NCBI GenBank assembly: GCA_043801165.1
Contig: JAZDMG010000007.1
Location: 134,155 to 198,154, forward strand
Origin: an archaeon
GTDB taxonomy: Archaea; Nanobdellota; Nanobdellia; Woesearchaeales; SM23-78
Reading direction: 5' to 3'
DNA length: 64,000 nucleotides
Made by a program: the position numbers and the translations under genes. Of this stretch, positions 4,595-29,737 are shown in pieces. The notes under the pieces were generated by a model that did not search any database, was not told the DNA's origin, and saw only the letters and a program-made list of their open reading frames with translations. Position 1 is the first letter of the stretch. Every line of letters begins with the position of its first letter.

Positions 4595-4629
4595 GATTAA
4601 TATCCTTTGCGTCGAGATGTCCAGTGCTA
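4595..4629 (+). promoter_or_regulatory. Conserved TATA-linked core module (short copy)
   Basis: gattaatatcctttgcgtcgagatgtccagtgcta. It is nearly identical to 22386-22419 and shares GCGTCGAG.TGTCCAGTG with six other copies. Confidence 0.6.
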
Positions 4630-4666
4630 AGAAAACATTAATAAACAGCAAAATCAAAGCAAATCA

Positions 4667-5017
4667 ATGTCCATCAAGCTCAAACTCAAAGACATCAAGA
4701 AAGACCTGGAGAACCACATCAAGCTCTTCAAGGCGATCTATGGCGACAGGAGGACTCCTCGCATGGCGAAGTTCTGCCTCTGGGGCGCGATGATATACCT
4801 GACAAGCCCGATCGACCTGATCCCTGACTTCATACCGATATTCGGACAGCTCGACGACATCATAATGATACCAGGCCTGATATTCCTGGCGATAAAGCTG
4901 ATACCGAAGGAAGTCTACAAGGAGCACCACGACAGGATAATGCCTCGCACCAAAGGCAAAAGACCTGCTGGCAAGGGAAAAGCATTAAAGACAAGCCGTT
5001 CCACTTCTAGAAAATGA
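4667..5017 (+). CDS. DUF1232 (YkvA-like) membrane protein
   Basis: [23 protein letters not shown] is the DUF1232 signature. An A/T box at 4637-4645 lies 22 nt upstream of the ATG. Confidence 0.75.
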
Positions 5018-5943
5018 TGTATCCGAAGCTCAATGGAAAAGCCATCCTCGCCCCGATGGCAGAGGTGAATGACCCTGCCTTCAGGATGCTCTGTAAGGAA
5101 TATGGCTGCGCACTTGTCTTCTCTGAGATGATCAGCGCCCCTGCGATAGCGAGGAGGAATGCCGCCACCATACACCTGATAGACACTTCTGAGAAAGAGA
5201 GGCCTTTCGGCATACAGCTGTTCGGCCAGGATCCTGAGAGCATCGCAAAGGCAGCTTTGTTCGTCGAGAAGGAGTTCAGGCCTGACGTCATCGATTTCAA
5301 TCTCGGCTGCCCTGCGAGAAAGATAATGAAGCAGGGATCTGGCTGCGCTTTGTTGCTGCGGAAGAACAGGATCAGGGATATCGTGGCTGCCTGTGTCAAG
5401 GAGCTGCACACTCCGTTCACTGTCAAGCTTCGCAGCGGTATGGACAGCAACAGGATAGTCGCTGTCGAGATAGCTAAGATCTGTGAGGAGGCAGGAGCAT
5501 CTGCGATAACTGTGCATCCAAGGACCATGGTGCAGGCCTACAGCGGAAAGGCAGACTGGAGCCTGATAAAGAAAGTCAAGGAAGCTGTCAGTGTGCCTGT
5601 CATAGGCAACGGAGACATATCGTCGCCAGAGGATGCTGAGCGGATGATGAGAGAGACTGGCTGCGACTACGTCATGCTAGGCAGGGCTGCTATGAAGAGC
5701 CCATTGATATTCAGGCAGATAAACGACCATCTGGAAGGCAACTACAGCAAGGTTGATGACTCTGCCCGCATCAAGATGATAAAACGCTATCTTGAGCTTG
5801 CTGAAGCTCATAAGACGAATGTTGTCAGGGTCAAATTGCATTGCCAGCATTTCACTGTCGGCATGAAGGGAAGCGCTGCTATGAGGGACAAAATAAGCAA
5901 GGTAAAGGATGTGGATTCCTTAAGGCAGATAATCGGTGTCTGA
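5014..5943 (+). CDS. dus: tRNA-dihydrouridine synthase
   Basis: 309 aa. [15 protein letters not shown]...GIQLFG...[11 protein letters not shown]...TVHPRT...GNGDI is the Dus/FMN TIM-barrel pattern. Confidence 0.9.
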
Positions 5944-5989
5944 AGCAGCACATCATTCGCTAGGTTCTAGAAAGATTTATATAAGCAAA

Positions 5990-6742
5990 ATGCAGAAGAA
6001 GGCTTATATGATTAAAAAAATACTTTTGATCTTAGCGATATGCAGCATCCTCATGATCCAGGGATGCGCAAGGACAGACCTTATAACTATCAGATTAACA
6101 AATGATAATCTTTCGCAGAATATAGACGCTCTGGTAAAATTAAGCGTGGTGCTGGAACAATATCCTCAATATCCTTTCTTGGTCAATACGGCTGATGACG
6201 CTTATGAAGTGATCGTCCGTTTCAGCCCAAAGGACCGCGATTCAGCGATTACTTTCTTTGAGCAGCTCATAAAGGAGAAGACTATCGAAGGGAAAATAGG
6301 AGAAACTGCGGTCTACTCTGGTGAGGACATAGCCTATATCTGCAGGTCTACCGAATGCTCAAGCCCAATCACAGATGGCTCTGAGGATGAAGTCGGCTGC
6401 CAACAGGCTGACACCAATTGGTCATGTCCATTCCATTTCTCAATACAGATAAGTCCTGAAGCAGCAAAGAGGACAAGCGAAGCCACACAAAATCTTTCTG
6501 TGGTCAATAAGGATGGTAAAGAGTATCTTGAAAAAGATTTAGCGTTGTATATTGATGGGAATCTTATCGAATCATTCTTGCTAGGCGCTGAGCTGAAGGG
6601 AAAAGAGATACAAGAGATAGGAATAACCGGGTCGGCGACAGGAAGGACAGAATCAGAAGCCAAGAAAGCTTCCCTGGATAAGATGATGTTCCTTCAGAAC
6701 TCTTTGACCGTCTTCCCGGCAAAGATAGAGATAAAAAAATAA
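5990..6742 (+). CDS. Putative lipoprotein, function unknown
   Basis: The ORF-track start at 5936 is non-ATG. ATG 5990 (MQKKAY) or ATG 6008 (MIKKILLILAICSILMIQGC, lipobox-like) is more plausible. TATA-like tttatata lies at 5975-5982. Confidence 0.6.
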   Translation: MQKKAYMIKKILLILAICSILMIQGCARTDLITIRLTNDNLSQNIDALVKLSVVLEQYPQYPFLVNTADDAYEVIVRFSPKDRDSAITFFEQLIKEKTIEGKIGETAVYSGEDIAYICRSTECSSPITDGSEDEVGCQQADTNWSCPFHFSIQISPEAAKRTSEATQNLSVVNKDGKEYLEKDLALYIDGNLIESFLLGAELKGKEIQEIGITGSATGRTESEAKKASLDKMMFLQNSLTVFPAKIEIKK

Positions 6743-6827
6743 TGCTGAAGGCGTTTGTGGACCGAAATCCTCTCTCTGTGACTCATAATCCATAATCTTT
6801 AAAAGCAAGCATTTTTTCTTCCTTTGC

Positions 6828-7685
6828 ATGGGATTTTTCACCAATGCTGTCAAGACGACCATATTGCTAGCGCTGCTGACTGCGCTCGTGCTTTGGATAG
6901 GCAATCTGCTGGGCGGCACTTCTGGATTGATTGTCGCCTTCGTCTTTGTCATGGTGATGAACTTCGTGATGTTCTGGTGGAGCCACAGGATAGTGCTTTG
7001 GATGTACAAGGCAAAGGAATTGCCCCAGGGCCACAGGGCTCGTAAGCTTGTGCGTGAGATTGCCAGCAGGGCAGGGCTTCCGATGCCAAAGGTCTACATC
7101 ATCGAGAGCGGAACTCCAAATGCTTTCGCCACAGGACCTACTCCTAAGAGGGCTGCTGTCGCTGTGACCAACAGCATACTTGATCTTCTTGATGACAATG
7201 AACTCAGGGGAGTCTTGGCCCATGAGATGAGCCACGTAAGGAACCGTGATACGTTGATACAGACCATCGCTGCTGTGATGGCAGGAGTTATTTCTTATGT
7301 TGCTACGATGGCCCGCTGGGGAGCGATGTTCGGAGGATTTGGCGGAGATGATGATCGAGGCAATGGATTCCTGGAACTCCTTGTCCTGGGCATACTTGCT
7401 CCTTTGATTGCTCTTCTGCTCCAGCTTGCCCTGTCAAGGACCCGCGAGTATTTTGCTGATGAGAGCGCTGCAAAGCTTTTGCATGACGGAAAAGGCCTTA
7501 GCTCTGCCTTGAAGAAGCTTGAGAAAGCCAATGCAGACCATCCTTTCAGGAAAGGAGAGGGAAGCCCTGCGACTGCTCCATTGTTCATCGTGAATCCTTT
7601 CAGGGGCAGCTTCATATTCCAGCTCTTCAGCACTCATCCTCCAATCATCAAGAGGACTGCTAAGCTTGACAGCATGAGGTTCTAG
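6828..7685 (+). CDS. htpX: HtpX-type M48 zinc metalloprotease
   Basis: 285 aa with an N-terminal TM pair, HEMSHV zinc motif, and NAFATG and FSTHPP motifs. Confidence 0.9.
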   Translation: MGFFTNAVKTTILLALLTALVLWIGNLLGGTSGLIVAFVFVMVMNFVMFWWSHRIVLWMYKAKELPQGHRARKLVREIASRAGLPMPKVYIIESGTPNAFATGPTPKRAAVAVTNSILDLLDDNELRGVLAHEMSHVRNRDTLIQTIAAVMAGVISYVATMARWGAMFGGFGGDDDRGNGFLELLVLGILAPLIALLLQLALSRTREYFADESAAKLLHDGKGLSSALKKLEKANADHPFRKGEGSPATAPLFIVNPFRGSFIFQLFSTHPPIIKRTAKLDSMRF

Positions 7686-9194: not shown

Positions 9195-9289
9195 TGACTA
9201 TTTCTAGGTTGGACAGGCAGTCGTAAACTATATAAATAACCCATTTGTCTAGTCCGATAGTATAAGTTCATGCTAAGAGGGTGATTTCA

Positions 9290-11920
9290 ATGGCAAAGAA
9301 GAAATTCGTCTATTATTTCTCAGAAGGAGATAAGTCAATGAAAGAATTGCTTGGCGGCAAAGGCGCTAATCTTGCTGAGATGACCAAGCTGGGGATTCCT
9401 GTCCCTCCGGGATTTACCATCACAACTGAAAGCTGCGCCTATTACAGCAAGGAGAAGAAATGGCCTGCTGAGCTCGAGGGAGAGATCAAGAAGAGCATCG
9501 AGAGGCTTGAGAAGGAGATGAAGGCAGCCTTTGATGACAAGAAGAACCCATTGATGGTCTCTGTCAGGAGCGGTGCTGCTTCTTCGATGCCCGGGATGAT
9601 GGACACGATATTGAATCTAGGGATTAATGATTCTACTGTTCTTGTCATGGCTGAGAAGTCAGGCAATGAAAGATTCTCCTGGGATTCCTATAGGCGATTC
9701 ATACAGATGTTCGGAGACGTCGTAATGGGCGTTGAGCATAGGCTCTTCGAGGAAGTCATGGAGAACGCGAAGGAGACCAAGGGAGTCAAGTATGACACTG
9801 ACCTTGATGCCTCTGACATGAAAAAGATAGTTGAGAAGTATAAGGCTGTTGTGAAGAAGCATGCTGGCAAGGACTTCCCGCAAAAGCCATGGGATCAACT
9901 GAAATTGTCGATTAACGCTGTGTTCGACTCATGGAACAACGAACGAGCGATAACCTACAGGAAATTAAACCACATACAGGGATTATTGGGGACTGCTGTT
10001 AATATCCAGGCGATGGTCTTCGGAAACATGGGAGAGACGTCAGGCACAGGAGTATGCTTCTCAAGGAACCCGTCAACAGGAGAGAATGCTTTCTACGGAG
10101 AATACCTGATGAACGCCCAGGGAGAGGATGTTGTCGCAGGCATAAGGACGCCATTGCACATCAATGAGCTGAAGAAGAGCATGCCCAAGCAATACGCTGA
10201 GCTTGTCAAGATAAGGGATGACCTTGAGAAGCACTACAAGGACATGCAGGACATGGAGTTCACGATACAGGAAGGAAAGCTGTACATGCTGCAGACACGT
10301 AACGGAAAAAGGACTGCACAGGCAGCCGTCAAGATAGCAGTCGACATGGTAAAGGAGAAGCTCATCGACGAGAAGACAGCAATCCTTCGCGTCAACCCTG
10401 AACAGCTTGACCAATTATTGCACAAGACCATTGATCCTGTGGCCAGGAAAAAAGCAAAGCTGATAGCCAAAGGCCTGCCTGCATCGCCAGGAGCAGTAGT
10501 CGGAAGCATCGTGTTTAACGCTGAGAGAGCTGTTGAGCTCGCTGAACGCGGAGAGAAACTGGTGTTGGTAAGGACAGAGACAAGCCCAGAAGACATCAAG
10601 GGAATGAACGCAGCACAGGGAATACTGACTGCCCGCGGAGGAATGACTTCCCACGCAGCAGTTGTCGCCCGAGGAATGGGCAAATGCTGCGTAAGCGGAT
10701 GCAGCGAGATAAAGGTGAAAGAGGAAGAGAAGAAACTGCTGATCAGTGGAGTGATATACAATGAAGGAGACTTCCTGACACTTGACGGTTCAACTGGAGA
10801 AGTGTTTGAAGGAAAGATACCATTGGTCGATCCTTCACTTAGCGGAGACTTTGGTGTGCTTATGAAATGGGCTGACAGCTATAGAAAACTGAAAGTCAGG
10901 ACCAACGCAGACACACCGAACGATGCCCGCGTCGCAAGAGGATTCGGAGCAGAAGGAATTGGCCTTTGCAGGACTGAGCACATGTTCTTCGAGGGCGACA
11001 GGATAAAAGCAGTGCGAGAGATGATTGTTGCCTCTGACCTTGGCGGAAGAAGAATTGCCCTTGCTAAGCTATTGCCTATGCAGAGAGGAGACTTCATAGG
11101 GTTATTTACTGAGATGAAAGGATTGCCTGTCACCATCAGATTGCTTGACCCTCCTTTGCATGAATTTTTACCTCATGAAGAGGAAGACATCGTTGAGCTG
11201 GCTGCTGAGATGAAGATATCTGTTGAAAAGATAAAATCCAAGATCGAAGAGCTGCATGAGTTCAACCCAATGCTAGGACATCGAGGATGCAGGTTGGGGA
11301 TAATATTCCCTGAGATATCTGAGATGCAGGCAAGGGCCATCTTTGAAGCTGCTGCTGAAGTGAAGAAGAAAGGCATCGACGCCAAGCCAGAAGTAATGGT
11401 TCCTTTGGTCGGGATTGTCCGCGAGCTTAAATTGCAGAAGGACTTGATCATCAGAGTGGCTGAAGAAGTTATGAAAGAGAAGAAAGTCAAGATAGAATAT
11501 ACTATCGGGACGATGATAGAGGTGCCCAGGGCAGCCATCACTGCTGACGAGATAGCTACTGAAGCTGATTTCTTTTCTTTCGGGACCAATGACCTGACCC
11601 AGATGGGATTAGGGCTTTCTAGGGATGACGCTGGAAAGTTCCTTGGCAAATACGTTGACATGGGAATATATGCGCGTGACCCATTCCAAGCTTTGGACCA
11701 AGCTGGCGTTGGTGAGCTGATGAAGATAGCAGTGGCCAAGGGAAGGAAGGTAAAGCCTAAGCTGAAATGCGGAATATGCGGAGAGCACGGAGGAGAGCCA
11801 TCCTCGGTTGAGTTCTGCCATCGCATCGGACTGGATTATGTAAGCTGTTCACCTTACCGAGTGCCTATCGCACGGCTGGCTGCTGCTCATGCGGTGCTGA
11901 AAGAAGCCAAGAAGAAGTAG
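9290..11920 (+). CDS. ppdK: Pyruvate, phosphate dikinase
   Basis: [25 protein letters not shown] (phospho-His loop), the C-terminal PEP-utilising TIM-barrel motif [11 protein letters not shown] and [12 protein letters not shown] 9290 is preferred over GTG 9281. Confidence 0.95.
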
Positions 11921-11955
11921 AGCATCTTGTTAAAATTATTTATTTTTCTGGTTTT

Positions 11956-11998
11956 ACAGGGAATTTGAGACTGATTACTATGAGACTGAATCAAATTC
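11956..11998 (+). repeat. Hairpin repeat family, copy M
   Basis: acaggGAATTTGA-(22 nt)-TCAAATTC. It lies between the convergent ends of ppdK and the RHH gene, and its 3' arm overlaps the last codons of 11978..12214. Confidence 0.7.
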
Positions 11999-12214
11999 TT
12001 TTCGCATGGATTGCTCTATCCTTGCGCTCATGTTATAGCCTTTCTCCCTGCATAGCTTCTGGAATCTCGAAGCCACAGCCTTGTCAACTGTGAAGTTCAT
12101 CCTGGTCTTGGTCCTGATCTTCTTGGTCTTCTCGAACTCCATCAAAGTCTCGAACATGGTCTTGTCGTTCTTGGCTATATCTTTCGCTATCCTAATGAAC
12201 TTGCTTGATTGCAT
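11978..12214 (-). CDS. RHH-type antitoxin partner of Doc
   Basis: 78 aa. The C-terminal MNFTVDKAVASRFQKLCREKGYNMSARIEQSMRKE fits strand-helix-helix. It overlaps the Doc gene by 23 nt. Confidence 0.6.
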   Translation of the reverse strand: MQSSKFIRIAKDIAKNDKTMFETLMEFEKTKKIRTKTRMNFTVDKAVASRFQKLCREKGYNMSARIEQSMRKEFDSVS

Positions 12215-12542
12215 CCTTGATCAACTCCTCTATCCTGTTTATGCTTGTTATGTTCTTGAGGATTATGCTCTTTATCAGCTTGACTATCCGGTCGTCATAG
12301 GTCTTGCATCCCTCATACTCGGCGTAGGCTTTTATCAGCAACGCGGTGGTCCTCTTGTTGCCTTCCTCAAAGACATGGTCTAATAGTATAGCCCTTGTGA
12401 GCCAGGCCAATGCCTTGGTCCAGTTCTCGGTCTTCTTGGCATAGCCTAGTGCGAACTCAAGGCTTGCCTCGTTGTGAAGCGTTCCTGTGTCGAACTCCTG
12501 GTTCAGGCATACGATATCCTTCTTTGAAAGCACAAATCTCAT
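12192..12542 (-). CDS. Fic/Doc family toxin
   Basis: HVFEEGNKRTTALL matches the Fic/Doc motif H.F.(D/E)GN.R. Confidence 0.8.
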   Translation of the reverse strand: MRFVLSKKDIVCLNQEFDTGTLHNEASLEFALGYAKKTENWTKALAWLTRAILLDHVFEEGNKRTTALLIKAYAEYEGCKTYDDRIVKLIKSIILKNITSINRIEELIKDAIKQVH

Positions 12543-12547: not shown

Positions 12548-12575
12548 ATACACATTTGTGTGTATAAATGTGTAT
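12548..12575. promoter_or_regulatory. Operator-like repeats in the Doc operon promoter
   Basis: ATACACA (12548-12554) and TGTGTAT (12559-12565) form an inverted repeat. A direct copy TGTGTAT sits at 12569-12575, interleaved with A/T boxes. Confidence 0.35.
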
Positions 12576-12633
12576 TGATATTTAAATGTTATTGATTTTC
12601 CGAGACGATGTCTCGGAATTGTTGGATTACACC

Positions 12634-12668
12634 TATTTAAATAGGCTGCGCCGAGCTGTCCAGTGAGC
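12634..12668 (+). promoter_or_regulatory. Conserved TATA-linked core module, copy A
   Basis: tatttaaataggctgcgccgagctgtccagtgagc. Confidence 0.6.
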
Positions 12669-13230: not shown

Positions 13231-13455
13231 TCAAAACTTCTTTCCAGTCTCGGACTTTATCTTTTTATTGAAGTCCTCGACGTCCTGCTTCGTGAGCTTG
13301 CTCTTCTCCAGAAGCTCTTTTTTATTTCGTCCTAATTCTATGAATAGGAGCTCTGGCGCCAAAGGCTCAATGCTTTCTGAGAACAATAGCTCTGCAGACT
13401 TTCCTCTTGCTAGGAGCGCTGCGAACAATACATTGGCATCGACGACCACTTTCAT
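13231..13455 (-). CDS. Truncated PIN-like toxin (74 aa)
   Basis: MKVVVDANVLFAALL is a PIN N-terminal acidic motif. The ORF stops well short of a full PIN domain. The upstream gene abuts it as TGA-ATG. Confidence 0.5.
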   Translation of the reverse strand: MKVVVDANVLFAALLARGKSAELLFSESIEPLAPELLFIELGRNKKELLEKSKLTKQDVEDFNKKIKSETGKKF

Positions 13456-13695
13456 TCATTTCAGACCTGGAAATTTCTTCTTGTATTGCCTGTGCATAGA
13501 AGAAGAGAGCTTGTCGGCCATCTTTTTTGCGTCTGCTTCAGTCAATTTGCTCTTAGACACTATTGACTTGAACATGGAAAGCGCCGTGATCTTCTCCCGT
13601 ATCGCCTCCCTTGCTACAGCAGACCAATTTATGTATTCCAACTCATCCATCTCCTTCTTCAAATCCTCAGGCACTGACAACGTTATTGTCGGCAT
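13456..13695 (-). CDS. Putative antitoxin
   Basis: 79 aa. MPTITLSVPEDLKKEMDEL...WSAVAREAIREKI is RHH/VapB-like. It lies directly upstream of the PIN-like ORF. Confidence 0.55.
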   Translation of the reverse strand: MPTITLSVPEDLKKEMDELEYINWSAVAREAIREKITALSMFKSIVSKSKLTEADAKKMADKLSSSMHRQYKKKFPGLK

Positions 13696-13786
13696 AGTCT
13701 TACCTCCGCATTCAAATATTTAAAACTGTGTAAACAGCGTAAATATTTAAATGTTTTGGCTCGATAATAATTACTGATAAGCTTAG

Positions 13787-13837
13787 CTTAAATAGGCTGC
13801 GTCAGGCCGTCCAGTGAGACCTGTGGTCATTTAGGGG
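13787..13837 (+). promoter_or_regulatory. Conserved TATA-linked module, copy B (long form, followed by a collapsed hairpin remnant)
   Basis: cttaaataggctgcgtcaggccgtccagtgagacctgtggtcatttagggg, followed by gaattgtcggaag, which matches the hairpin flanks with the hairpin interior missing. Confidence 0.6.
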
Positions 13838-19820: not shown

Positions 19821-19902
19821 TGGGCGAACACCTCAGATGTTTGCCCCCCAGCTAGCCTAACGGCTAGCTGGCTTATTAAATTTTTAGATTCTGGACGCAC
19901 CC
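18996..19902 (-). mobile_element. IS element (IS4/IS5-like DDE transposase) with 17-bp terminal inverted repeats and 9-bp target duplication
   Basis: GGGTGCGTCCAGAATCT at 18996-19012 is the reverse complement of 19886-19902. CGGTCCAAA flanks both ends (18987-18995 and 19903-19911). Confidence 0.85.
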
Positions 19903-19947: not shown

Positions 19948-20439
19948 GTGGGATTAAATTCAATCATCAAATTTAAGAAAAAAACACCGGATTGGTGGAT
20001 TTTAACTCTATTGCCTCTTCTTCTCATACTTTCTGTTTCTGTGATAAGTTATTTTACTAATGGGATTTACACCGCATTATCCGCGTTTATCGAACAGATC
20101 TTAACGTTTAGTTTTGTCTTAAGTAGCACAGATCTGGCATTACGTTCAAAAATAGTAAAAGAAGATAAGCGTTCGAGATTACCTCCAATAATACCATTGA
20201 TTCTGGCTTTTATAATATTTATTATTTATGTTGCGTTAATTGATACTATTACGGCTCGATTTTCAAAAGACGTTATTTACTGTGTATTCGTATTAATAAC
20301 AATTATTATTGGTTATGCATCAATTATCTTGTATAACAACAATCCTTACAGTGATCCTTTTGAGCCGAATCCTGTAGAAGAGAAAATTGGTCAAGAAGAA
20401 GCAGACATGAAAAGATTTGAATTTGGAGATAAACAATGA
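19948..20439 (+). CDS. Small four-helix membrane protein, unknown function
   Basis: 163 aa, GTG start, four hydrophobic segments. Its stop overlaps the start of the next gene (ATGA at 20436-20439). Confidence 0.55.
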   Translation: MGLNSIIKFKKKTPDWWILTLLPLLLILSVSVISYFTNGIYTALSAFIEQILTFSFVLSSTDLALRSKIVKEDKRSRLPPIIPLILAFIIFIIYVALIDTITARFSKDVIYCVFVLITIIIGYASIILYNNNPYSDPFEPNPVEEKIGQEEADMKRFEFGDKQ

Positions 20440-21548
20440 ATTCGAATGAAGAGAAGTGGTTAGAAATATCTGTAATGGAGATTGAACAGCCTATTGGGAA
20501 ATTCTATATCGGAAAAGCTTTGGCCAACGATGTTACCAGAATCTGTTCTGCTGATAAAAGACAAAAAGTTATAAATGACGAGCTAGATGCTTACATAGGA
20601 ATTCAAAGACAACTAAATGAGGCTAGAAAAAAAGAAATTGAAAAATTTGTTTTAACCGAAGATGCTAGTTTTCCTAGTTCTGTTGTTCTTGCTGTTAAAG
20701 AAGGGGCATACGAATACGACAATGAGAGAAAAATTATTAAGATTAAAGAAGATAGAAAATCATGCAACATACTCGATGGTCAACACAGATTATCCGGATT
20801 TCCTGCAAACACCGAGAATAAATTTGAGCTTATCCTAACTATCTTTCCGGAACTTGATTTAGAATATCAAAGTTATCTTTTCTCAGTTATTAATACTCGC
20901 AGCACTAGAATTAATCCATCTTTAGCTCAAGATTTATATGCTTTCTCAAAAGTCGACACGCCTGAACGATTAGCTCACAGAATCGCTAGAGTTTTTAATA
21001 AAACTGAAGAAAATCCTTGGTTCATGAGATTGAAACTTCTTGGTATGAGCGACGGTAATAAAAATGCTATTTTATCACAAAGTACATTTACTAAATATAT
21101 TGTTGAATTGATATCAAGAAAAGAGGACACATATCAAATCAGAGATGTTCTGAAGAGAAACAACAATAAGAGAAAAGCTCTTAAAGACTTCAAATCTCAT
21201 GGTCCGCTTTGGGATAAATACATTAACGGTGAAGATAAATATATTTATGATTTATTAAAATGTTATTTTATTGCGGCAAAGCAAAAATTCCAAGATAACT
21301 GGGGAGATCATAACAGCATCATTACAAAAACAACAGGTTACGCTGCATTAATGAATGTATTGAAATATTTATTGAAAAGGGAATTGCCAAACGAACCCGA
21401 TGTTGGTTATTTCAAAAAGTATTTTGATAATATCCCCGACCCGATTATTGAGAGATTAGACAGTGAGCATTATACGCCGGGTCAAGTAGGAGAAAGTGAT
21501 CTTCAAAAAGATATTTTAAAAGGAATGGGATTTGAGAAAGGTAATTGA
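20436..21548 (+). CDS. DGQHR-domain (DndB-like, ParB/Srx-fold) protein
   Basis: NILDGQHRLSGF, with D of DGQHR at codon 114 (nt 20775), and the upstream GIQRQLNEARKKEI motif. Confidence 0.8.
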   Translation: MNSNEEKWLEISVMEIEQPIGKFYIGKALANDVTRICSADKRQKVINDELDAYIGIQRQLNEARKKEIEKFVLTEDASFPSSVVLAVKEGAYEYDNERKIIKIKEDRKSCNILDGQHRLSGFPANTENKFELILTIFPELDLEYQSYLFSVINTRSTRINPSLAQDLYAFSKVDTPERLAHRIARVFNKTEENPWFMRLKLLGMSDGNKNAILSQSTFTKYIVELISRKEDTYQIRDVLKRNNNKRKALKDFKSHGPLWDKYINGEDKYIYDLLKCYFIAAKQKFQDNWGDHNSIITKTTGYAALMNVLKYLLKRELPNEPDVGYFKKYFDNIPDPIIERLDSEHYTPGQVGESDLQKDILKGMGFEKGN

Positions 21549-21581
21549 TTTTAATCTCTTTTCTGATTAGTTGAAAGGAGC

Positions 21582-22364
21582 TTATTTTATATGCGCGTTC
21601 ATCTCTTCAAATCTTTGTTTAGTTAAGTTTAGGAATTCTTTTTCTTTCTCGATTCCAATATATTTTCTTCCTAGCGAGCACGCAACAACGCCAGTCGTTC
21701 CCGAGCCATTAAAGGGGTCTAGAATATAGTCTCCTTCATTAGAGCTGGATGCGATTATTCTTTTCAACAATTCAATCGGCTTCTGAGTTGGATGTGCTCC
21801 GCATTTCTTCTCGCTCATAGGAGTTAAAGGAATATGCCAAATGCTTCGCATTTGCTTTCCTTTCGGGCTTATCTTATCATCCCATTCTTTCATTTCTTTG
21901 TAGTGGAAGATGTGCTTCGCGTCCTTTTCTTTCCTGGCCCAGATTATCGTTTCGTGAGTATGAGCAAAGCAACGACAAGCGAGATTTGGAGGAGCATTGG
22001 GTTTATACCAAGTAATATCATTCAGAATGTGAAAACCCAACGATTGTAAAGCATAGCCCACCTGATAAATGTTATGCGGCGTTCCAGAAATCCAGATCGT
22101 TCCGTTCGGTTTCAAAACACGTCGACACTCCTTTATCCAGCTATAGGTAAATTCAAAATCCTTCTCGAATCCTTTTGATTTATCCCAATCTCCTTTATCT
22201 ACGCAAACCACTTTGCCAGCTTTGCAAGAAATGCCACCGTTTGAGAGGTTATAAGGAGGGTCGGCGAATATTGTGGTTATTGATTCACTTTTTATTTTTG
22301 GAAGCAGCTCTAAACAATCGCCATGCAAGAGAGTAATGTCTTCATCCTTATGATAAACAGTCAT
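21582..22364 (-). CDS. Beta-class DNA methyltransferase, probably N6-adenine
   Basis: N-terminal IFADPPYNL catalytic motif and C-terminal ILDPFNGSGTTGV SAM motif, in beta-class order. Confidence 0.85.
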   Translation of the reverse strand: MTVYHKDEDITLLHGDCLELLPKIKSESITTIFADPPYNLSNGGISCKAGKVVCVDKGDWDKSKGFEKDFEFTYSWIKECRRVLKPNGTIWISGTPHNIYQVGYALQSLGFHILNDITWYKPNAPPNLACRCFAHTHETIIWARKEKDAKHIFHYKEMKEWDDKISPKGKQMRSIWHIPLTPMSEKKCGAHPTQKPIELLKRIIASSSNEGDYILDPFNGSGTTGVVACSLGRKYIGIEKEKEFLNLTKQRFEEMNAHIK

Positions 22365-22385
22365 TCTCTATCAATTCATGACCTT

Positions 22386-22419
22386 GTTTATATTCTTTGC
22401 GTCGAAATGTCCAGTGCTA
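22386..22419 (+). promoter_or_regulatory. Conserved TATA-linked core module (short copy)
   Basis: gtttatattctttgcgtcgaaatgtccagtgcta. Confidence 0.6.
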
Positions 22420-22489
22420 TTATACAAAAAACGGAATATTCTCGTAAAAAGCGAAAATATTATTAACTTTGAGGCATAACATTTTATTA

Positions 22490-23125
22490 ATGACTGAAAA
22501 CTACACAGAAGGCATGAACTATCAAAAGATGCTGGATGTAATAAAGAAGTTAGAATTCGATAAAAAGAAAACCATCTATAAAGAGGTAAATGTTGAAGTG
22601 TATCTAATCAGACCTTCAGAATTGCCCAAACGATTAAAAAACAAATATGATGCTAGTAAAAATTTCCAAATCTGGTTAAAAGAAGATGAAAGAGAGTTCA
22701 AACCGAACCATTTAAGATTAATGATTGATTTGAATCTTAGAGCAAGATCAAGACCTGACTTGAAAAAAGACCTTCTGAAAGCATTCGATAACATATTCTA
22801 CGGAAATGACCCTCTTAAAGAAGTTCAGAAATTATCCTTGGAGAAATTCGAGCATTATCTGAATTCGATCAAAGTAATCGCTGTACTGATGCAGCTCTTT
22901 TTGATTGAACAGGATTTCAATTACATAAAAGACAGTAAATTTGAACCCAAAACGCTATTTTTTCAAGGATGGATTAGAGAATTCATAGACAGTCCAAAAG
23001 AAATCGATAATATGTGCATGAGCGTTTGCAATGGACAACCGCCAAAGATACAATATACTGATAAAGAAAATGGAAAACATAAGAAATACGAAAAAGATCT
23101 AAAACCATTGTGGTATTTGAATTAA
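22490..23125 (+). CDS. Hypothetical protein between two methyltransferase genes (candidate restriction endonuclease; unproven)
   Basis: 211 aa from ATG 22490. An A/T box at 22456-22466 lies 24 nt upstream. No nuclease motif could be assigned with confidence; the call is positional only. Confidence 0.5.
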   Translation: MTENYTEGMNYQKMLDVIKKLEFDKKKTIYKEVNVEVYLIRPSELPKRLKNKYDASKNFQIWLKEDEREFKPNHLRLMIDLNLRARSRPDLKKDLLKAFDNIFYGNDPLKEVQKLSLEKFEHYLNSIKVIAVLMQLFLIEQDFNYIKDSKFEPKTLFFQGWIREFIDSPKEIDNMCMSVCNGQPPKIQYTDKENGKHKKYEKDLKPLWYLN

Positions 23126-23955
23126 TAATTAGTTACTACAACCTCGTTGATTTCTCCACGACCTTCTGCTTTAGAATTAATCATTCTTCTTGCTTTGACA
23201 GTGTGAATTTTAAAATCAGCGTAAATTTCTTTTATTAGTTTTGTATCGCTGTTGCTTTCCATACAGAAGCATCCTTTTTCTGATAGTTTTCTGAAGATTT
23301 CAGCCAGTTTTTTCTGGTCTTTTTCTACAAAATTGTCTTTTGTATATGTCGTGAAGCTCGGTTTCGCATCCAAAGGATGATAAGGCGGGTCAAAATATAC
23401 AAAATCCCCTTCTTTAGCCAAATCAGCAATCTTTTCAAAAGACATTACCTTGATCGTTACGTTTTTTAGAAGTTCAGCGATTCTTCTTAGTTTATCTTCT
23501 TGGACGACATCCGGATTCTTGTAGTCACCCATAGGAACGTTAAATTGATTCTTAGAATTTACTCTATACAATCCATTAAAACAGGTTCGATTTAGATAAA
23601 TAAATCTGGCGGCTCTTTCCAATAAAGGCAAATCGTTTGGGCTGACACTTCTTATTTCATAATAATATTCTTTTCCGTCAGCCAAATGATATTCTTTGTG
23701 TTGCTTTAGCTCTACGATAAGCCGTTCTACATCGGTTTTGATAACATTGAACGCATTAATAAGCTCCTCGTTAGTATCTGAGAGAAAAACCTCTTTTGGT
23801 TTTAAATTTTGAATAACGAAGAAGGCCACAGCTCCGCTTCCTACAAACGGCTCAAAGTATCTATTAAATTTCTTTGGAAAGAGAGGCTTAAACTGCTCGA
23901 TAAGCTGCTGCTTCCCACCAGCCCACTTTACAAAACGCGGAATATCCTCACCCAT
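23122..23955 (-). CDS. Dam-type (alpha-class, D12) N6-adenine DNA methyltransferase
   Basis: The N-terminal WAGGK...EPFVGSGAV SAM motif precedes YFDPPY. Confidence 0.85.
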   Translation of the reverse strand: MGEDIPRFVKWAGGKQQLIEQFKPLFPKKFNRYFEPFVGSGAVAFFVIQNLKPKEVFLSDTNEELINAFNVIKTDVERLIVELKQHKEYHLADGKEYYYEIRSVSPNDLPLLERAARFIYLNRTCFNGLYRVNSKNQFNVPMGDYKNPDVVQEDKLRRIAELLKNVTIKVMSFEKIADLAKEGDFVYFDPPYHPLDAKPSFTTYTKDNFVEKDQKKLAEIFRKLSEKGCFCMESNSDTKLIKEIYADFKIHTVKARRMINSKAEGRGEINEVVVTNY

Positions 23956-24017
23956 ATTCGAAGAATAAGCGGGTTTTATTTAAATATCTTACACTATTGC
24001 AGAGTCAGATAGTATCT

Positions 24018-24066
24018 CCCGAATTCGCCCTTCTGTCTCGTAAGATTCTTTTTGGCGAATTCCCTG
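24018..24066 (-). repeat. Hairpin repeat family, copy E
   Basis: Top strand cccGAATTCGCC-(24 nt)-GGCGAATTCcctg. Confidence 0.7.
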
Positions 24067-24080
24067 CTTTTCCGTCAAAC

Positions 24081-24132
24081 GCCGTAAATTCTCACAGGTC
24101 GCACTGGACATCTATGCGTAGCCTATTTAAAT
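24081..24132 (-). promoter_or_regulatory. Conserved TATA-linked module, copy E (long form)
   Basis: The reverse complement reads atttaaataggctacgcatagatgtccagtgcgacctgtgagaatttacggc. Confidence 0.6.
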
Positions 24133-24153: not shown

Positions 24154-24357
24154 ATGATAATAAGACAAACAAATCCGGAAAGAAAAACTCCAAGGGCGAT
24201 GTGGCATCATGGCACTTGTATGAGATGTAATGAAAGGACTGTTTTGGTTTTGCATTTTGGTTACGACACTTCGCCTGAGTTTTGCTATCAAATTTGCGAG
24301 AAATGCTTGAAAGAGCATCTTCCATTGATTAATCAAAAAATAGGTGTGTTGTATTAA
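24154..24357 (+). CDS. Small CxxC...CxxC zinc-ribbon-like protein
   Basis: 67 aa with CMRC and CEKC. The ATG lies 22 nt downstream of the palindromic TATA at 24124-24132. Confidence 0.4.
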   Translation: MIIRQTNPERKTPRAMWHHGTCMRCNERTVLVLHFGYDTSPEFCYQICEKCLKEHLPLINQKIGVLY

Positions 24358-24433: not shown

Positions 24434-25252
24434 ATGATTCGTAAGTCTTTACTTTATAAGAGCAGCGTGGAGTACGCTGACTTCTGCATCAATCATGTTG
24501 AAGGCTGTTCTCACGGGTGCACTTTTCCTTGTTATGCTATGATGATGGCCAAGCGCTTTGGCAAGATCAAGTCTTATTCTGACTGGATTAAGCCGAAAGT
24601 GGTCGAGAATGCTCTTGAGCTTCTTGATAAGGAGATCCCTAAGTACAAGGACCAGATAAAGTTTGTCCATCTCTGCTTCTCAACCGATCCTTTCATGTAT
24701 GGCCATGATGAGGTCAAGGATATGACTTTGAAGATCATTGAGCGCCTGAACAAGGACAATATAAGATGCACTGTGCTCACTAAGGGGGTCTATCCGAAAG
24801 AATTGGCAGATACAAAGAAGTATGGTCTGAATAATGAGTACGGCATCACCTTGGTCTCTCTTAATCAGGATTTTAAGCGCAGCTTTGAGCCTTTCGCAGC
24901 TTCTTACGAGCAAAGGATAAAATCGTTGAAGCGTTTGAGCGATGTCGGTCTTAAGACTTGGGTCAGCATGGAGCCTTATCCTACTCCGAACCTTGTCAAT
25001 CAAAATCTGAAGAAGATTCTTGAAAAAATCTCATTTGTCGACAAGATAGTCTTTGGAAAGCTCAATTATAACGTCAAGACTAGCTTGTTCAAGGACAACG
25101 CTACTTTCTATGAAGGCTGCGCGCAGACAGTGATTGATTTCTGCAAGAAAAAAGGAATAGATTATCATATCAAGTTCGGAACTCAAACCAGATTCGATAA
25201 GGCAACAGCTTCTTTGTTCAAGAAGAAGTGCGAAATAATAGTTCAAGTGTAA
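24434..25252 (+). CDS. Radical-SAM-like protein (SplB/COG1533-like) with an atypical Cys spacing
   Basis: EGCSHGCTFPCYA gives C-x3-C-x3-C, read directly from the DNA at 24503-24529. ATG 24434 is preceded by gagggagagg. Confidence 0.6.
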   Translation: MIRKSLLYKSSVEYADFCINHVEGCSHGCTFPCYAMMMAKRFGKIKSYSDWIKPKVVENALELLDKEIPKYKDQIKFVHLCFSTDPFMYGHDEVKDMTLKIIERLNKDNIRCTVLTKGVYPKELADTKKYGLNNEYGITLVSLNQDFKRSFEPFAASYEQRIKSLKRLSDVGLKTWVSMEPYPTPNLVNQNLKKILEKISFVDKIVFGKLNYNVKTSLFKDNATFYEGCAQTVIDFCKKKGIDYHIKFGTQTRFDKATASLFKKKCEIIVQV

Positions 25253-25277: not shown

Positions 25278-25322
25278 CCCGAATCCGCCCTTCGGGTTTG
25301 ATTGCGCCTGGCGGATTCCCTG
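25278..25322 (-). repeat. Hairpin repeat family, copy F
   Basis: cccGAATCCGCC-(20 nt)-GGCGGATTCcctg. Confidence 0.7.
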
Positions 25323-26401: not shown

Positions 26402-26488
26402 GGATTGATTTAATGATAACCTAATAATAAACTGCACTCAAAAAAAATCACAATAATTGCGAAGAGAACACAATCCTTTCGTCTTTCA

Positions 26489-26538
26489 CGTAAATAATCA
26501 CAGGTCTCACTGGACAGCTCGACGTGAGGTATTTAAAC
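26489..26538 (-). promoter_or_regulatory. Conserved TATA-linked module, copy G (long form, no hairpin)
   Basis: The reverse complement reads gtttaaatacctcacgtcgagctgtccagtgagacctgtgattatttacg. Confidence 0.6.
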
Positions 26539-26559
26539 AATTCTTGCTGATATGTTTTC

Positions 26560-27393
26560 ATGAAAAAAGACAGAGCTCTGGTGGTTTTCCAGGACAAGAA
26601 AATCAGAAGAGTCTGGCACAACGACGAGTGGTTTTTCTCAGTCATAGATGTTGTTTACGCACTAGAAGCCAGTACAATACCAAAAAGGTATTGGTCAGAC
26701 CTAAAAGTCAAGCTTTCTGAGGAAGGATTTGAAGCGTACGATAAAATCGTACAGTTGAAATTGGTGGCTGAGGACGGAAAACTCAGGGAGACCGATTGCG
26801 CCAGCACAAGGAACATGTTCCGTATAATCCAATCAATCCCCTCTCCAAAGGCCGAGCCTTTCAAACTCTGGCTGGCGAAAGTCGGTTATGAGCGCGTCCA
26901 GGAGATACAGGACCCGGAACTGGCCCACAAAAGGATTGGTGAGATCTACCGGCAGAAAGGCTATTCTGAGGAATGGGTAAGGCATCGTCTAAGCATCATG
27001 GACTTAAGGCAGGAGATGACTGAGGAATGGAAGAACCGAGATGTGAATGAAGAGCGAGAATTCGCCATACTTACAAACGAGATAAGCAAAGCAGCCTTCG
27101 GAAAGACCGTGGACGAGTACAAAGGGCTCAAAGGGCTAAAAAAGCACAACCTGAGAGACCACATGAACAGGCTTGAGCTCATATTCACATCGCTTGCAGA
27201 GGCATCGACAACAGCCATCGCAAGAGGAAAGGACGTCAAAGGTTTCAAGGAGAACGAGAAAGCCGCAAAGGAAGGTGGAACTGTCGCAGGAAACGCAAGA
27301 AAAGAGCTGGAGAAAAAATCAGGCAAACCTGTCGTCTCGAATGACAATTACCTTGATGAGCCGGAGAAGGCCAAGAGAAAGAGTCTTAGATAA
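26560..27393 (+). CDS. DinD-like protein (Bro-N-like N-terminal domain)
   Basis: FQDKKIRRVWHNDEWFFSVIDVV, plus C-terminal KGLKKHNLRDHMNRLELIFTSLAE recalled as resembling E. coli DinD. Confidence 0.6.
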   Translation: MKKDRALVVFQDKKIRRVWHNDEWFFSVIDVVYALEASTIPKRYWSDLKVKLSEEGFEAYDKIVQLKLVAEDGKLRETDCASTRNMFRIIQSIPSPKAEPFKLWLAKVGYERVQEIQDPELAHKRIGEIYRQKGYSEEWVRHRLSIMDLRQEMTEEWKNRDVNEEREFAILTNEISKAAFGKTVDEYKGLKGLKKHNLRDHMNRLELIFTSLAEASTTAIARGKDVKGFKENEKAAKEGGTVAGNARKELEKKSGKPVVSNDNYLDEPEKAKRKSLR

Positions 27394-27476: not shown

Positions 27477-27520
27477 TTCCGAATCCGCCCCTCGCGCTGC
27501 TGCAGCCGGCGGATTCCCTG
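27477..27520 (-). repeat. Hairpin repeat family, copy H
   Basis: ttccGAATCCGCC-(18 nt)-GGCGGATTCcctg. Confidence 0.7.
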
Positions 27521-27548: not shown

Positions 27549-27608
27549 CTAGTTCAAAACAACTATCGCTACGTTAAGTATAGTGGCGAACGTCACCCGG
27601 AGAAGGTA
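27549..27608 (-). pseudogene. Relic 3' end of a second, diverged tspO allele
   Basis: Translated by hand it reads YLLRVTFATILNVAIVVLN-stop, against YLLWVSFATILNVAIVVLN-stop in the intact tspO. It is preceded by an in-frame stop, so it is a fragment only. Confidence 0.7.
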
Positions 27609-27630
27609 TCAATAAAACCACCTCTCTTCT

Positions 27631-28504: not shown

Positions 28505-28505
28505 T

Positions 28506-28970
28506 CTAATTCAAAACAACAATCGCCACGTTAAGAATAGTCGCAAAGCTCACCCAAAGAAGATACGGCACCAATAAATACCCAGCTTTCCTATCGACCT
28601 TGAAGAACTTCATCATGGTGACCAGTATCATCACCCATAATACGATTATCTCTACCAAGGCCCATGACGGGTTGCGGAATCCAAAGAAAATCACTGACCA
28701 TATCACGTTCAGCACCAGTTGCGCCATGAACGCCTTCATCGCCCCTCCTTCTTCCTTCCGCCATACGAGATAGAAGGCGATTCCCATCATGATAAAAAGC
28801 AAAGTCCATACTGGCCCGAACAGCCACGAAGGAGGATTAAAAACCGGCTTCGCCAAAGAAGCATACCATACAGGGATGGCTGGTGTGGTGAACAACGACC
28901 CTACTGCTCCAGCAAGTAAACAAACAACGACAGAAATGATCAGCTTAACCTCTTTTCTCACAGATACCAA
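28506..28970 (-). CDS. tspO: TspO/MBR tryptophan-rich sensory protein
   Basis: 154 aa with five TM segments. WYASLAKPVFNPPSWLFGPVWTLLF is the family signature. Confidence 0.85.
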   Translation of the reverse strand: MVSVRKEVKLIISVVVCLLAGAVGSLFTTPAIPVWYASLAKPVFNPPSWLFGPVWTLLFIMMGIAFYLVWRKEEGGAMKAFMAQLVLNVIWSVIFFGFRNPSWALVEIIVLWVMILVTMMKFFKVDRKAGYLLVPYLLWVSFATILNVAIVVLN

Positions 28971-29008
28971 TAATAAGCCTGACTATTAATACTTTGCTGA
29001 AAAGAGCG

Positions 29009-29260
29009 TCATCTCCTCTTGTAGATGCTCTTCCTGTGGCCTATGCAGGTCACGATTATCCGTGAATCAGCTATGTCAGCTATGGCCCTATAATCCCCGA
29101 CCCTCAGCTTATAGTCCGCTCTCCCTTCAAGCCTTTCAAAGAAGTGAAAAGGATCGTTCTTGGCTCGCTGAAGCTTTAAGAATATCCTCTCTCTGATCCT
29201 CTTCTCGAGCTTTTCCAGGAATCTTATGGCTTCTTCGTCTATTACCAGCTCATAGCTCAT
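29009..29260 (-). CDS. RelE/ParE-family toxin
   Basis: 83 aa. ADYKLRVGDYRAIADI...IVTCIGHRKSIY. Confidence 0.75.
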   Translation of the reverse strand: MSYELVIDEEAIRFLEKLEKRIRERIFLKLQRAKNDPFHFFERLEGRADYKLRVGDYRAIADIADSRIIVTCIGHRKSIYKRR

Positions 29261-29496
29261 AAACCTAGCCTCTTCTTGGCTTCGGCTTCTGTGAGGAATC
29301 TTCCCTTTCTTATCCTTTCCCTGGCTTTTTCTATGGCTTCGACAGTCTCTTTGCTGAGCTCAGGCTTGCTCTTCGTGTTCTTGGCTATGAACAGCAGCTT
29401 CTTCAGCACCTCATCATAGCTCTCGTTCTTGTATTCCCTGAAGGTGTCAAGCTCTGACTTTGTCCCGTCATGTATCTTTATTGTCGTCTCGCTCAT
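29257..29496 (-). CDS. Antitoxin
   Basis: Small ORF overlapping the toxin start by 4 nt. ATG 29496 is preferred. GGTATAC direct repeats lie in its promoter. Confidence 0.6.
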   Translation of the reverse strand: MSETTIKIHDGTKSELDTFREYKNESYDEVLKKLLFIAKNTKSKPELSKETVEAIEKARERIRKGRFLTEAEAKKRLGL

Positions 29497-29622
29497 AAAA
29501 AGCTCACCGTATACCACAGTATACCGAAGTATATTTAATGCTTTCTATTCTGATGGCAGCGAGGGTGATTAATATAGCCTAGCAAAAGGTTTTCGGACAG
29601 ATTCTGGAAGAAGCGATGTCTT

Positions 29623-29668
29623 CTTCCGAATCCGCCCTTCGCGTTTCTTCGTCCGGCGGATTCCCTGT
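29623..29668 (-). repeat. Hairpin repeat family, copy J
   Basis: cttccGAATCCGCC-(19 nt)-GGCGGATTCcctg. Confidence 0.7.
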
Positions 29669-29685
29669 TGTCCCTCCGCTTTCTC

Positions 29686-29737
29686 CGTAAATAACCACAG
29701 GACGCATAGGACAGCTCGACGCAGCGCTTATATAGCC
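29686..29737 (-). promoter_or_regulatory. Conserved TATA-linked module, copy J (long form)
   Basis: The reverse complement reads ggctatataagcgctgcgtcgagctgtcctatgcgtcctgtggttatttacgg. Confidence 0.55.

Follow-up and report, generated by a model that had tools for sequence, protein, structure and literature searches.

What is the role of a short sequence that recurs beside many unrelated accessory genes of one archaeon? The question is raised by a stretch of 64,000 nucleotides (nt) from contig JAZDMG010000007.1 of a member of the Woesearchaeales, hereafter the window, in which an earlier note had described eight copies of a module linked to a TATA box. In that note, each copy was a TATA-like box followed by about 25 conserved nt that would cover the interval from the TATA box to the transcription start, and three explanations were offered: an operator common to the mobilome and bound by one regulator, the promoter and 5' end of a family of non-coding RNAs (ncRNAs), or the conserved end of a decaying mobile element. 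Of these, the shared operator fits best, since the module has a fixed position and a phylogenetic footprint and is shared by unrelated units, although it reads best on the other strand. We propose, with somewhat better than even confidence, that the module is a shared regulatory site that would lie upstream of the B recognition element (BRE) and TATA box of leaderless mobilome genes, and that these genes form one regulon under a putative factor.

Module Copies in the Window

All eight copies stand at the coordinates and on the strands that had been claimed for them, as direct reading of the sequence confirmed. With up to three mismatches allowed, the core pattern of the earlier note matches exactly these eight places; 0.16 matches are expected in dinucleotide-preserving shuffles, and eight were reached in none of 100. 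A hidden Markov model (HMM) built from the copies recovers the same eight with E = 3e-10 to 6e-7, and nothing comparable was found by it between 30 and 64 kb of the window. On the strand on which the earlier note read it (the motif strand), every copy does begin with a TATA-like A/T 8-mer, which is TTTAAATA, CTTAAATA, TTAATATC, TTTATATT or TATATAAG, and TGTCCAGTG or a close variant follows 13 nt after it in all eight. The exact 9-mer TGTCCAGTG occurs five times in the window, each time linked to a TATA box, where about 0.5 occurrences would be expected by chance on both strands. The extension MGWCCTGTGRTTATTTACGG is present, as claimed, in five copies (13787, 17531, 24132-, 26538-, and 29737-, numbered on the motif strand). 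Likewise, the five copies on the plus strand all lie to the left of the three on the minus strand. A ninth, diverged copy at 9207–9236 (minus on the motif strand) is considered alongside these; it reads TTTATATA-N13-TGTCCAACC, has an nhmmer E-value of 0.05, and matches TGGACA-N6-CGYA exactly.

Over 51 nt, pairwise identity among the copies ranges from 37 to 88%. The upper value belongs to copies 3 and 4, all other pairs over this length being at most 75% identical, and copies 1 and 5 share 90% over 30 nt.

Direction of the Promoter

As the earlier note had recognized, the genes that follow the module on the motif strand have an A/T box of their own; it stands some 30 nt ahead of the ATG. The module is not their promoter; in that direction, the next start codon is 72–220 nt away. 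On the opposite strand, the first base of the TATA 8-mer lies at -30 or -31 from an ATG in copies 1, 4, 5, 6, and 7, and at -38 in copy 8. The module is thus promoter-linked, with its TATA box at a fixed spacing to the start codon of the opposite-strand gene. This spacing, found in six of the eight copies and likewise at every motif-bearing orthologue of the Bro-N gene discussed below, does not support the view that the conserved 25 nt are the interval between TATA box and transcription start. The orientation first given to the module is most likely reversed, to judge from this geometry. Since the TATA box would then serve the opposite-strand gene, the conserved block would lie upstream of BRE and TATA, at about -44 to -75.

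Read for the gene, the module can be written [CCGTAAATAAYCACAGGWCK]-CACTGGACA-N6-CGYAR-N2-TATWTAAA-~22 nt-ATG, with the CCGTAAATAAYCACAGGWCK part bracketed, or in a fuller form [CCGTAAATAA-CACAGGWC-K]-CACTGGACA-N6-CGYAR-N2-TATWTAAA-21 to 23 nt-ATG. The 9-mer is fixed relative to the core promoter, with 13 nt to the TATA 8-mer in all eight window copies and 13–15 nt in distant genomes. Across eight genomes, the end of CACTGGACA is 43–48 nt from the ATG of an open reading frame (ORF) of at least 45 amino acids (aa) on the same strand in 16 of 25 copies, and 51 nt from it in two more. Among 60 module-free genes of the window, the strongest upstream A/T 8-mer has its mode at -30 and falls between -36 and -30 in 22 of 44 cases; leaderless housekeeping genes of this genome are thus built with the geometry seen at the module. 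The genome is largely leaderless, leaderless mRNA being its normal gene architecture, and the TATA box of the module stands, as in a leaderless promoter, about 30 nt before the start codon. When the TATA box is read for the gene, its flank CGYAR-N2 is conserved yet GC-rich, and the other side of the box has no conserved flank. Ordinary promoters here carry an A-rich stretch before TATA (e.g., AAAC directly before TTTAAA), whereas GCAGCC, GTGAGG, or GCAAAGG is found in module promoters.

The genes that would be served can be named copy by copy; strands are given from here on in gene orientation, i.e., opposite to the motif strand. Copy 1 (short form, 4597–4626, minus; the plus strand reads TTAATATC-N13-TGTCCAGTG) would serve a LAGLIDADG gene at 3906–4574 on the minus strand (Pfam LAGLIDADG_3), with the first TATA base 30 nt from the ATG at 4574. 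Copy 4 (long form, 17531–17581, minus) would serve a DUF1016/YhcG nuclease gene (16500–17507; Pfam) from a TATA box at -31, and copy 5 (short form, 22387–22416, minus) would serve an N6/N4 DNA methyltransferase gene (21582–22364; Pfam), situated in a segment of 34% GC, from -30. The TATA box is also at -30 in copy 6 (long form, 24081–24131, plus), which precedes a 67-aa ORF (24154–24357) and then a radical SAM gene (24434–25252), and in copy 7 (long form, 26487–26537, plus), which precedes the Bro-N/DinD-like gene (26560–27393). In copy 8 (long form, 29684–29734, plus), it is at -38 from a pair of genes for 96 and 97 aa (29765–30349).

The remaining copies depart from this geometry. Copy 2 (short form, 12636–12665, minus) has 101 nt between its TATA box and the ATG of a Doc/Fic toxin gene (12192–12542; assigned to Fic/DOC), and copy 3 (long form, 13787–13837, minus) lies 99 nt upstream of a VapB-like/PIN_2 operon (13231–13695). 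The possible ninth copy (9207–9236, plus), which in gene orientation reads GGTTGGACA-GGCAGT-CGTAA-AC-TATATAAA, is upstream of a PPDK gene (9290–11920; Pfam) that has a Shine-Dalgarno leader. Most copies off the -30 geometry precede toxin-antitoxin operons that have a second canonical promoter, AAACATTTAAATA, and palindromes before the start codon. Between copy 2 and the Doc start, this second promoter is at 12579–12589 and the palindromes are at 12550–12573 and 12598–12618, the latter being the perfect palindrome TTCCGAGAC-ATC-GTCTCGGAA; between copy 3 and the VapB-like start, the promoter is at 13744–13754 and a palindromic operator-like stretch at 13714–13748. These palindromes are probably the antitoxin's own operators, an arrangement that gives tandem promoters.

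Conservation in Related Genomes

The comparison covered about 300 kb of related DNA, and sequence collections were scanned with exact patterns. In 185,579 species genomes, a strict 29-nt pattern had one match, a genuine one, in a Woesearchaeota metagenome-assembled genome (L001), where the motif lies 25 nt before a Bro-N gene. The pattern scan of metagenomes also gave one match, L002 (Ga0268280_1000564), in which eight copies of the module lie on one strand. A further relative, L003, whose glucokinase is 87% identical to that of the window, has an island with four copies at the same locus. The window and these two relatives, L002 and L003, are referred to below as this lineage. A 73% relative, L004 (GCA_016932315.1), has neither island nor motif at that locus: at 10001–12300, genes for eRF1-like, PIN, Nop, and fibrillarin proteins come directly after the one for glucokinase, which makes the accessory island an insertion specific to the sublineage of the window.

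The motif is found upstream of Bro-N orthologues in L001, L002, L003, L005/L006, L007, L008, and L010. In the distant members of this set (L001, L005/L006, L007, L008, and L010), labeled Woese-, Nano-, or Aenigmarchaeota, the Bro-N proteins are 71–76% identical to that of the window, and CACTGGACA (once CACTGGTCA) stands 13–15 nt upstream of the Bro-N TATA box, while the spacers and flanks around the motif are not alignable. The distant Bro-N upstream regions often carry an overlapping tandem, CACTGGACACTGGACA, and in L005 and L007 a second exact TGTCCAGTG occurs about 60–110 nt further upstream. On this comparison of sequences, the motif before the Bro-N gene in five distant DPANN genomes is a phylogenetic footprint. 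The information profile falls into blocks, high in the 9-mer, in CG.A, and in TATA and near zero in the N6 spacer and in the 22-nt spacer between TATA and ATG, which is the pattern that would be expected of a protein-binding site beside a core promoter.

Within this lineage, individual copies can be followed with their genes. The arrangement of copy 3 is orthologous to L002 8541–9084 (87% identical); the DUF1016 gene of L002 (start near 6640, stop at 7488) carries the motif, as in copy 4; the orthologue of copy 6 is at L002 952–987, before an ORF at 1007–1210; and that of copy 8 is at L003 11782–11815. Orthologous copies resemble one another more than copies of the same genome do, and in the window, L002, and L003 alike they are still beside their own genes; they must therefore predate the divergence of these genomes and have been kept since, and they are not recent insertions.

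These data bear directly on the third of the original explanations, considered here in the form that the copies would be relics of a small mobile element, either an insertion sequence (IS) end or an element of the miniature inverted-repeat type, that carried an outward promoter and had no shared regulator. The module is indeed a repeated intergenic sequence in an island that also holds an IS, it includes the highly identical pairs 3/4 (88% over 51 nt) and 1/5 (90% over 30 nt), and its stretch next to the TATA box, GGCTGCGYCGAG, agrees at 9–10 of 12 positions with the terminal repeat GGGTGCGTCCAG of the IS. However, neither terminal inverted repeats nor a target duplication were found at the copies, homology begins exactly at the TATA box, and most pairs are 40–75% identical overall, with conservation limited to blocks. 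Moreover, orthologous copies were kept beside the same genes in three genomes, and it is the IS-like part of the module that distant genomes have not conserved. The end of the resident IS was rejected as the source of the module, given that its repeat GGGTGCGTCCAGAATCT differs and that the partial likeness falls in the part without deep conservation. Four scans of viral contigs (long form, hairpin, and tandem form) gave no matches, and there is no sign in them of a viral origin of the module. With no inverted ends, a different resident IS end, and copies that stay with their genes, we consider a decaying mobile element very improbable.

Hairpins and the RNA Hypothesis

A family of GC-rich hairpins, tcttcCGAATCCGCC-loop-GGCGGATTCcctgt (the core is also given as CGAATCCGCC-loop-GGCGGATTC), with cUUCGg-like loops, accompanies the module; four members are present in the window, seven in L002, and six in L003. 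Those of the window are all on the plus strand. The first, CGAATTCGCC-loop-GGCGAATTC at 24020–24063, is 18 nt upstream (in gene orientation) of the long-form copy 6; the second (25280–25319) starts 28 nt after the radical SAM stop codon; the third (27480–27517) starts 87 nt after the Bro-N stop codon, between convergent genes; and the fourth (29627–29664) is 20 nt upstream, again in gene orientation, of the long-form copy 8. More generally, hairpins lie 15–25 nt upstream of several long-form modules, and in L002 five of the seven are 8–36 nt past the stop codon of the preceding gene. In all three genomes, their polarity is always that of the modules in the same region. The stem is paired in 97% of alignment cells and contains one compensatory change, C-G to U-A, in three sequences, which is weak evidence; the observed score was reached by 31 of 500 shuffles. 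The hairpin, often located upstream of the module, would close the preceding unit, probably as an insulator or terminator.

Two further features were noted around these hairpins. Small extra hairpins, TAGTCTGCTGCAGCAGACTA and CAGTGACTGGCGAAAGCAGTCACTG, are inserted in the 3' arm region of two L002 hairpins (7560–7620 and 9498–9510) and look like miniature insertions. In addition, CCTGT within the extension of the long form is the complement of ACAGG immediately ahead of the hairpin (window 24066–24095 and 29667–29700; L002 8500–8556), and the variants GCAGG and ACGGG preserve this pairing, as U.G wobbles, only on the motif strand, which is the one hint of an RNA on that strand.

Such an RNA was the second of the original explanations. 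In the form considered here, the TATA box would fire toward the conserved block, the 22 nt would separate TATA from the transcription start, and the extension (AGACCTGTGGTTATTTACGG and the hairpin) would be the 5' end of an ncRNA family or of shared 5' leaders, or else the promoter would be bidirectional. In this orientation, TTTAAATA fits the TATA consensus of the genome, and TATA plus 22 nt would lead to a start right after TGTCCAGTG. Conservation also runs on for 20–100 nt on this side in this lineage, and the compensatory change in the hairpin and the 5-bp CCUGU/ACAGG pairing, of which two copies keep U.G wobbles on this strand only, agree with an RNA. The searches for such an RNA were, however, negative. 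Rfam (the whole window at the gathering score; 12–30.5 kb at E up to 1) returned only a chance match to a long ncRNA. A structured RNA on the motif strand was rejected, as no common fold was found among the five long copies: the folding energy of four of them is unremarkable (z = -1.4 to +1.2), and the good fold of the fifth is that of a palindrome, equal on the other strand. Past the 9-mer, no sequence is conserved in the short-form copies or in any distant copy, and there is no T-tract terminator consistent among the copies. In L002, transcription in this direction would often run into the 3' ends of convergent genes, and the spacing of -30 to the divergent ATG would be left unexplained. An ncRNA family, or a leader in this direction, is therefore unlikely; it is possible that the near-palindromic TATA box is used in both directions.

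Cassette Arrays

The modules and hairpins divide the accessory DNA into units. L002 1–11200 is a co-oriented array of eight [module-TATA-gene(s)-hairpin] units that ends at the ArgRS gene and contains a 67-aa ORF, a 302-aa ORF with a radical SAM gene, Bro-N, MazE-PIN_3, DUF1016, MazEF, VapB-PIN_2, and a group of ORFs of 61–219 aa. Cassettes are ordered differently in the window than in L003, and L002 holds one unit more than the window.

This organization raises the question of whether module and hairpin are primarily a cassette junction, i.e., a recombination site or homology patch of an integron-like system without classical attC, in which a promoter role would be secondary. Archaeal integrons with attC have been described, including arrays in Nanoarchaeota and other DPANN (Ghaly et al., 2022; PMC9668308). 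As in integrons, co-oriented small accessory units are separated by a repeated hairpin-forming site, adjoin core genes, and vary in content among close relatives; the array of co-oriented small cassettes split by a repeated site is found as such in L002, where eight units end at the core gene ArgRS. Modules and hairpins have one polarity per region in the window, L002, and L003. Homology blocks between reordered cassettes end near the module, the hairpin, or start or stop codons, the island is absent at the same locus of L004, and a gene in foreign DNA of 34% GC carries the native module. Unlike in integrons, each unit here has its own promoter, and at a distance the module is confined to the upstream region of one gene: in the stretches examined of the five distant genomes, the motif is beside the Bro-N gene only, at a fixed distance from TATA. 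The hairpin flanks do not fit the R''/R' of attC (RYYYAAC/GTTRRRY), and an attC site was rejected, the flanks being tcttcCGAATCCGCC...GGCGGATTCcctgt, with GTTGTCC after them in some copies only and no complementary R''. Neither an integrase nor another tyrosine recombinase, IntI included, was found among the scanned ORFs of window 3–31 kb or the genes called in L003. Finally, some cassette breakpoints are blurred by small deletions and are not sharp. On balance, we regard it as quite unlikely that a recombination site is what the module primarily represents.

Traces of cassette rearrangement are nevertheless present. A stretch of 60 nt downstream of the PIN_3 gene (27549–27608) shares 82% identity with 28506–28565, the 3' end of the TspO gene, and is a gene remnant from such a rearrangement; similar gene remnants occur in L002 at 3320–3420 and 5830–5958.

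A Proposed Shared Regulatory Site

About 13 unrelated units stand behind the module in the window, L002, and L003: LAGLIDADG, Doc, VapB-PIN_2, DUF1016, the N6/N4 methyltransferase, the 67-aa ORF with the radical SAM gene, a radical SAM gene directly (L003), Bro-N, the 96/97-aa gene pair, a 302-aa ORF, MazE-PIN_3, MazEF, and a group of ORFs of 61–219 aa. In the regulatory reading that we prefer, each copy would supply the upstream half of a promoter of archaeal type, from which transcription leads into the opposite-strand gene and leaves the conserved block behind. The TATA box, whose place as a core promoter follows from its geometry, and the BRE-like CGYAR would set the start at or beside the ATG and yield a leaderless mRNA. 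The invariant 9-mer CACTGGACA, at about -52 to -44, would be bound by a single putative transcription factor that recognizes this sequence. Often the 9-mer is part of a direct repeat with a spacing of one helical turn, formed by CACAGGWC 10 nt upstream (in this lineage) or by the overlapping CACTGGACACTGGACA (in distant genomes), and the putative factor may contact or recruit TFB/TBP. We lean toward activation by the 9-mer site because it would lie upstream of an atypical GC-rich BRE, whereas the BRE of ordinary promoters here is A-rich; repression by occlusion of the BRE would be equally compatible with the sequence. As to its history, the comparison suggests that the module was established anciently before the DinD/Bro-N-like gene of DPANN and that, in this lineage, it was copied before many accessory genes of unrelated kinds (toxin-antitoxin pairs, nucleases, methyltransferases, and small ORFs). 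If it was copied before so many accessory genes, these would form one regulon.

Several observations weigh against this account. Conservation in this lineage runs 20–100 nt past the 9-mer, through CCGTAAATAA and the hairpin, and a single factor site needs none of this. Outside this lineage, the motif was found with one gene family only, so that the regulon is seen only in the window, L002, and L003. At two Bro-N loci, L011 and L012, the motif is absent, one of the L012 Bro-N copies being inside an operon, and it is also missing from the DUF1016 island of the distant L016, where the homologue is embedded in an operon of a low-GC island. TTTAAATA comes close to a palindrome, and by consensus its better orientation is that of the earlier note. 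Three of the nine window copies (2, 3, and the ninth) are 58–101 nt from the start codon, and in copies 2 and 3 a second canonical promoter lies between. The cognate factor of the 9-mer is putative, with the Bro-N protein as one candidate, and both the direction and the function that we propose are drawn from geometry and conservation.

The L016 island (GCA_043822325.1), from a distant Nanoarchaeota genome, is itself of low GC and consists of many co-oriented HEPN/nucleotidyltransferase pairs around the DUF1016 gene, with neither module nor hairpin.

The Bro-N/DinD-Like Protein and a Possible Stress Regulon

The protein encoded at 26560–27393 is considered a candidate for the factor because its gene is the only one tied to the motif in all lineages. 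It matches the NCBIfam DinD model weakly, is widespread in DPANN and unusually well conserved there, and has more than 8000 homologues, of which the best 120 are 64–92% identical. A sequence search of the PDB returned nothing; in a fold search with its AlphaFold model (mean confidence score, pLDDT, 83), the only PDB match was Deinococcus DdrC, a DNA-binding protein of the damage response, over the full length with E = 1e-5. No role as a transcription factor is known for DinD or DdrC of bacteria, and the Bro-N protein may therefore be a member of the regulon and not its regulator.

In bacteria, dinD and ddrC stand behind conserved stress operators, namely the LexA SOS box at dinD of Escherichia coli and the radiation/desiccation response motif (RDRM) at ddrC of Deinococcus. 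This gives rise to the idea, by analogy, that the module may mark a stress regulon. The likeness is that the most deeply motif-tied gene is DinD-like (by a weak sequence match) and DdrC-like by fold, and that a short element lies beside the core promoter. We know of no LexA, DdrO, or PafBC in this archaeon. A damage-response element of actinobacteria, the RecA-NDp/PafBC motif tTGTCRgtg-8 nt-TAnnnT (PMC5656591), contains TGTCRGTG, which TGTCCAGTG resembles with one extra base. The 9-mer here faces the opposite way relative to the gene, and the host is an archaeon with a TATA/BRE promoter. Because of the extra base and the opposite facing, this resemblance is a lead only.

Taken further, these observations permit a tentative and rather doubtful proposal. 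DPANN accessory genes may be packaged as standard units (module, gene or genes, and hairpin) in arrays of one polarity without an integrase; the module would be a stress cis-element, possibly for DNA damage, whose oldest member is DinD/DdrC-like; toxin-antitoxin, restriction-modification, and nuclease genes would be united in one SOS-like regulon; and the ends of the units would serve as homology patches for cassette swaps between cells.

Comparison with Known Systems

In function, the closest counterparts would be archaeal upstream activator or operator sites that abut BRE/TATA. Such sites include the GvpE upstream activating sequence of Halobacterium gvp promoters, the Ptr2 sites of Methanocaldococcus jannaschii, and the TFB-RF1 site of Pyrococcus furiosus. 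These systems too have a short conserved element, in many cases directly repeated, that keeps a constant short spacing to the BRE/TATA following it, a weak or atypical BRE, and several transcription units that share the element. The module differs from them in its unrelated sequence, uncultured DPANN host, leaderless mobilome targets, putative factor, and longer repeat with hairpin.

Modular intergenic repeats are also known in bacteria (REP/BIME, Correia, ERIC, and BOX); they are not known from archaea of this group. They resemble the present case as mosaics of short intergenic modules with hairpins, some of which carry promoters, but here the module has no inverted ends and holds a fixed position to the start codon of one neighbor. 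These repeats are listed as promoter carriers in the study of putative mobile promoters (Nijveen, Matus-Garcia and van Passel, 2012; PMC3575422), which described highly similar upstream sequences before non-homologous genes of one genome, spread by a mechanism that was left unexplained. In evolutionary terms, this promoter reuse (PMC3575422) would be the closest analogue. To qualify there, sequences upstream of non-paralogous genes had to share 80% identity or more across a minimum of 50 nt in the region from -150 to -50; among our copies, only 3 and 4 reach this level (88%, 51 nt), and the module lies at -30 to -80. The block-wise and phylogenetically deep conservation of the module favors a binding site over a recent copy. 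In the literature on the 9-mer or on DPANN promoter motifs, no paper that mentions this motif was found.

Genomic Setting

The window has a GC content of 45%. Its origin from a Woesearchaeota (DPANN) archaeon is borne out by its glucokinase, for which the best named matches are in 'Candidatus Woesearchaeota' and Nanobdellota metagenome-assembled genomes. Its part from 30 to 64 kb is core genome (glucokinase, SMC, AlaRS, and NAPRTase), whereas from 4 to 30 kb housekeeping operons (Dus, RNase HII, PPDK, and an ABC transporter) are mixed with accessory genes, which include LAGLIDADG, Doc, VapB/PIN, DUF1016, two methyltransferases, DndB-like, Bro-N/DinD-like, MazE/PIN, ParE, TspO, and an IS. The earlier note placed all copies beside accessory genes. 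Pfam and NCBIfam assignments bear this out for PIN, a VapB-like antitoxin, Doc/Fic, two methyltransferases, LAGLIDADG, DUF1016, and Bro-N/DinD-like; HEPN was not confirmed, and the genes co-directional with copy 1 on the motif strand (DUF1232, Dus, M48 peptidase, RNase HII, and PPDK) are housekeeping genes.

A segment of 34% GC at 20000–24000, which holds a DndB-like gene, the N6/N4 methyltransferase gene, a 211-aa ORF without known family, and a Dam-type methyltransferase gene, sits exactly between the two oppositely oriented groups of modules and is probably a recently acquired restriction-modification or DNA-modification block. The IS occupies 18996–19902, with a DDE_Tnp_1 transposase gene at 18888–19820 on the minus strand and perfect 17-bp terminal inverted repeats GGGTGCGTCCAGAATCT at 18996–19012 and 19886–19902. 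A search of the window for tRNA and tmRNA genes found none.

Significance

To our knowledge, nothing is known about gene regulation in Woesearchaeota and most other DPANN archaea, few of which have been cultured. The module provides a concrete candidate regulon: a 9-mer at a fixed distance from TATA that is conserved before one gene across DPANN and that, in a single lineage, has multiplied to stand before some 13 accessory units. It also holds a lesson for the annotation of leaderless archaea, in which a TATA box with conserved downstream sequence may be the upstream element of the opposite-strand gene. If our account is true, one control would cover the toxin, nuclease, and methylase genes newly acquired by a reduced, host-dependent archaeon, and the module would show how a promoter element spreads between genes.

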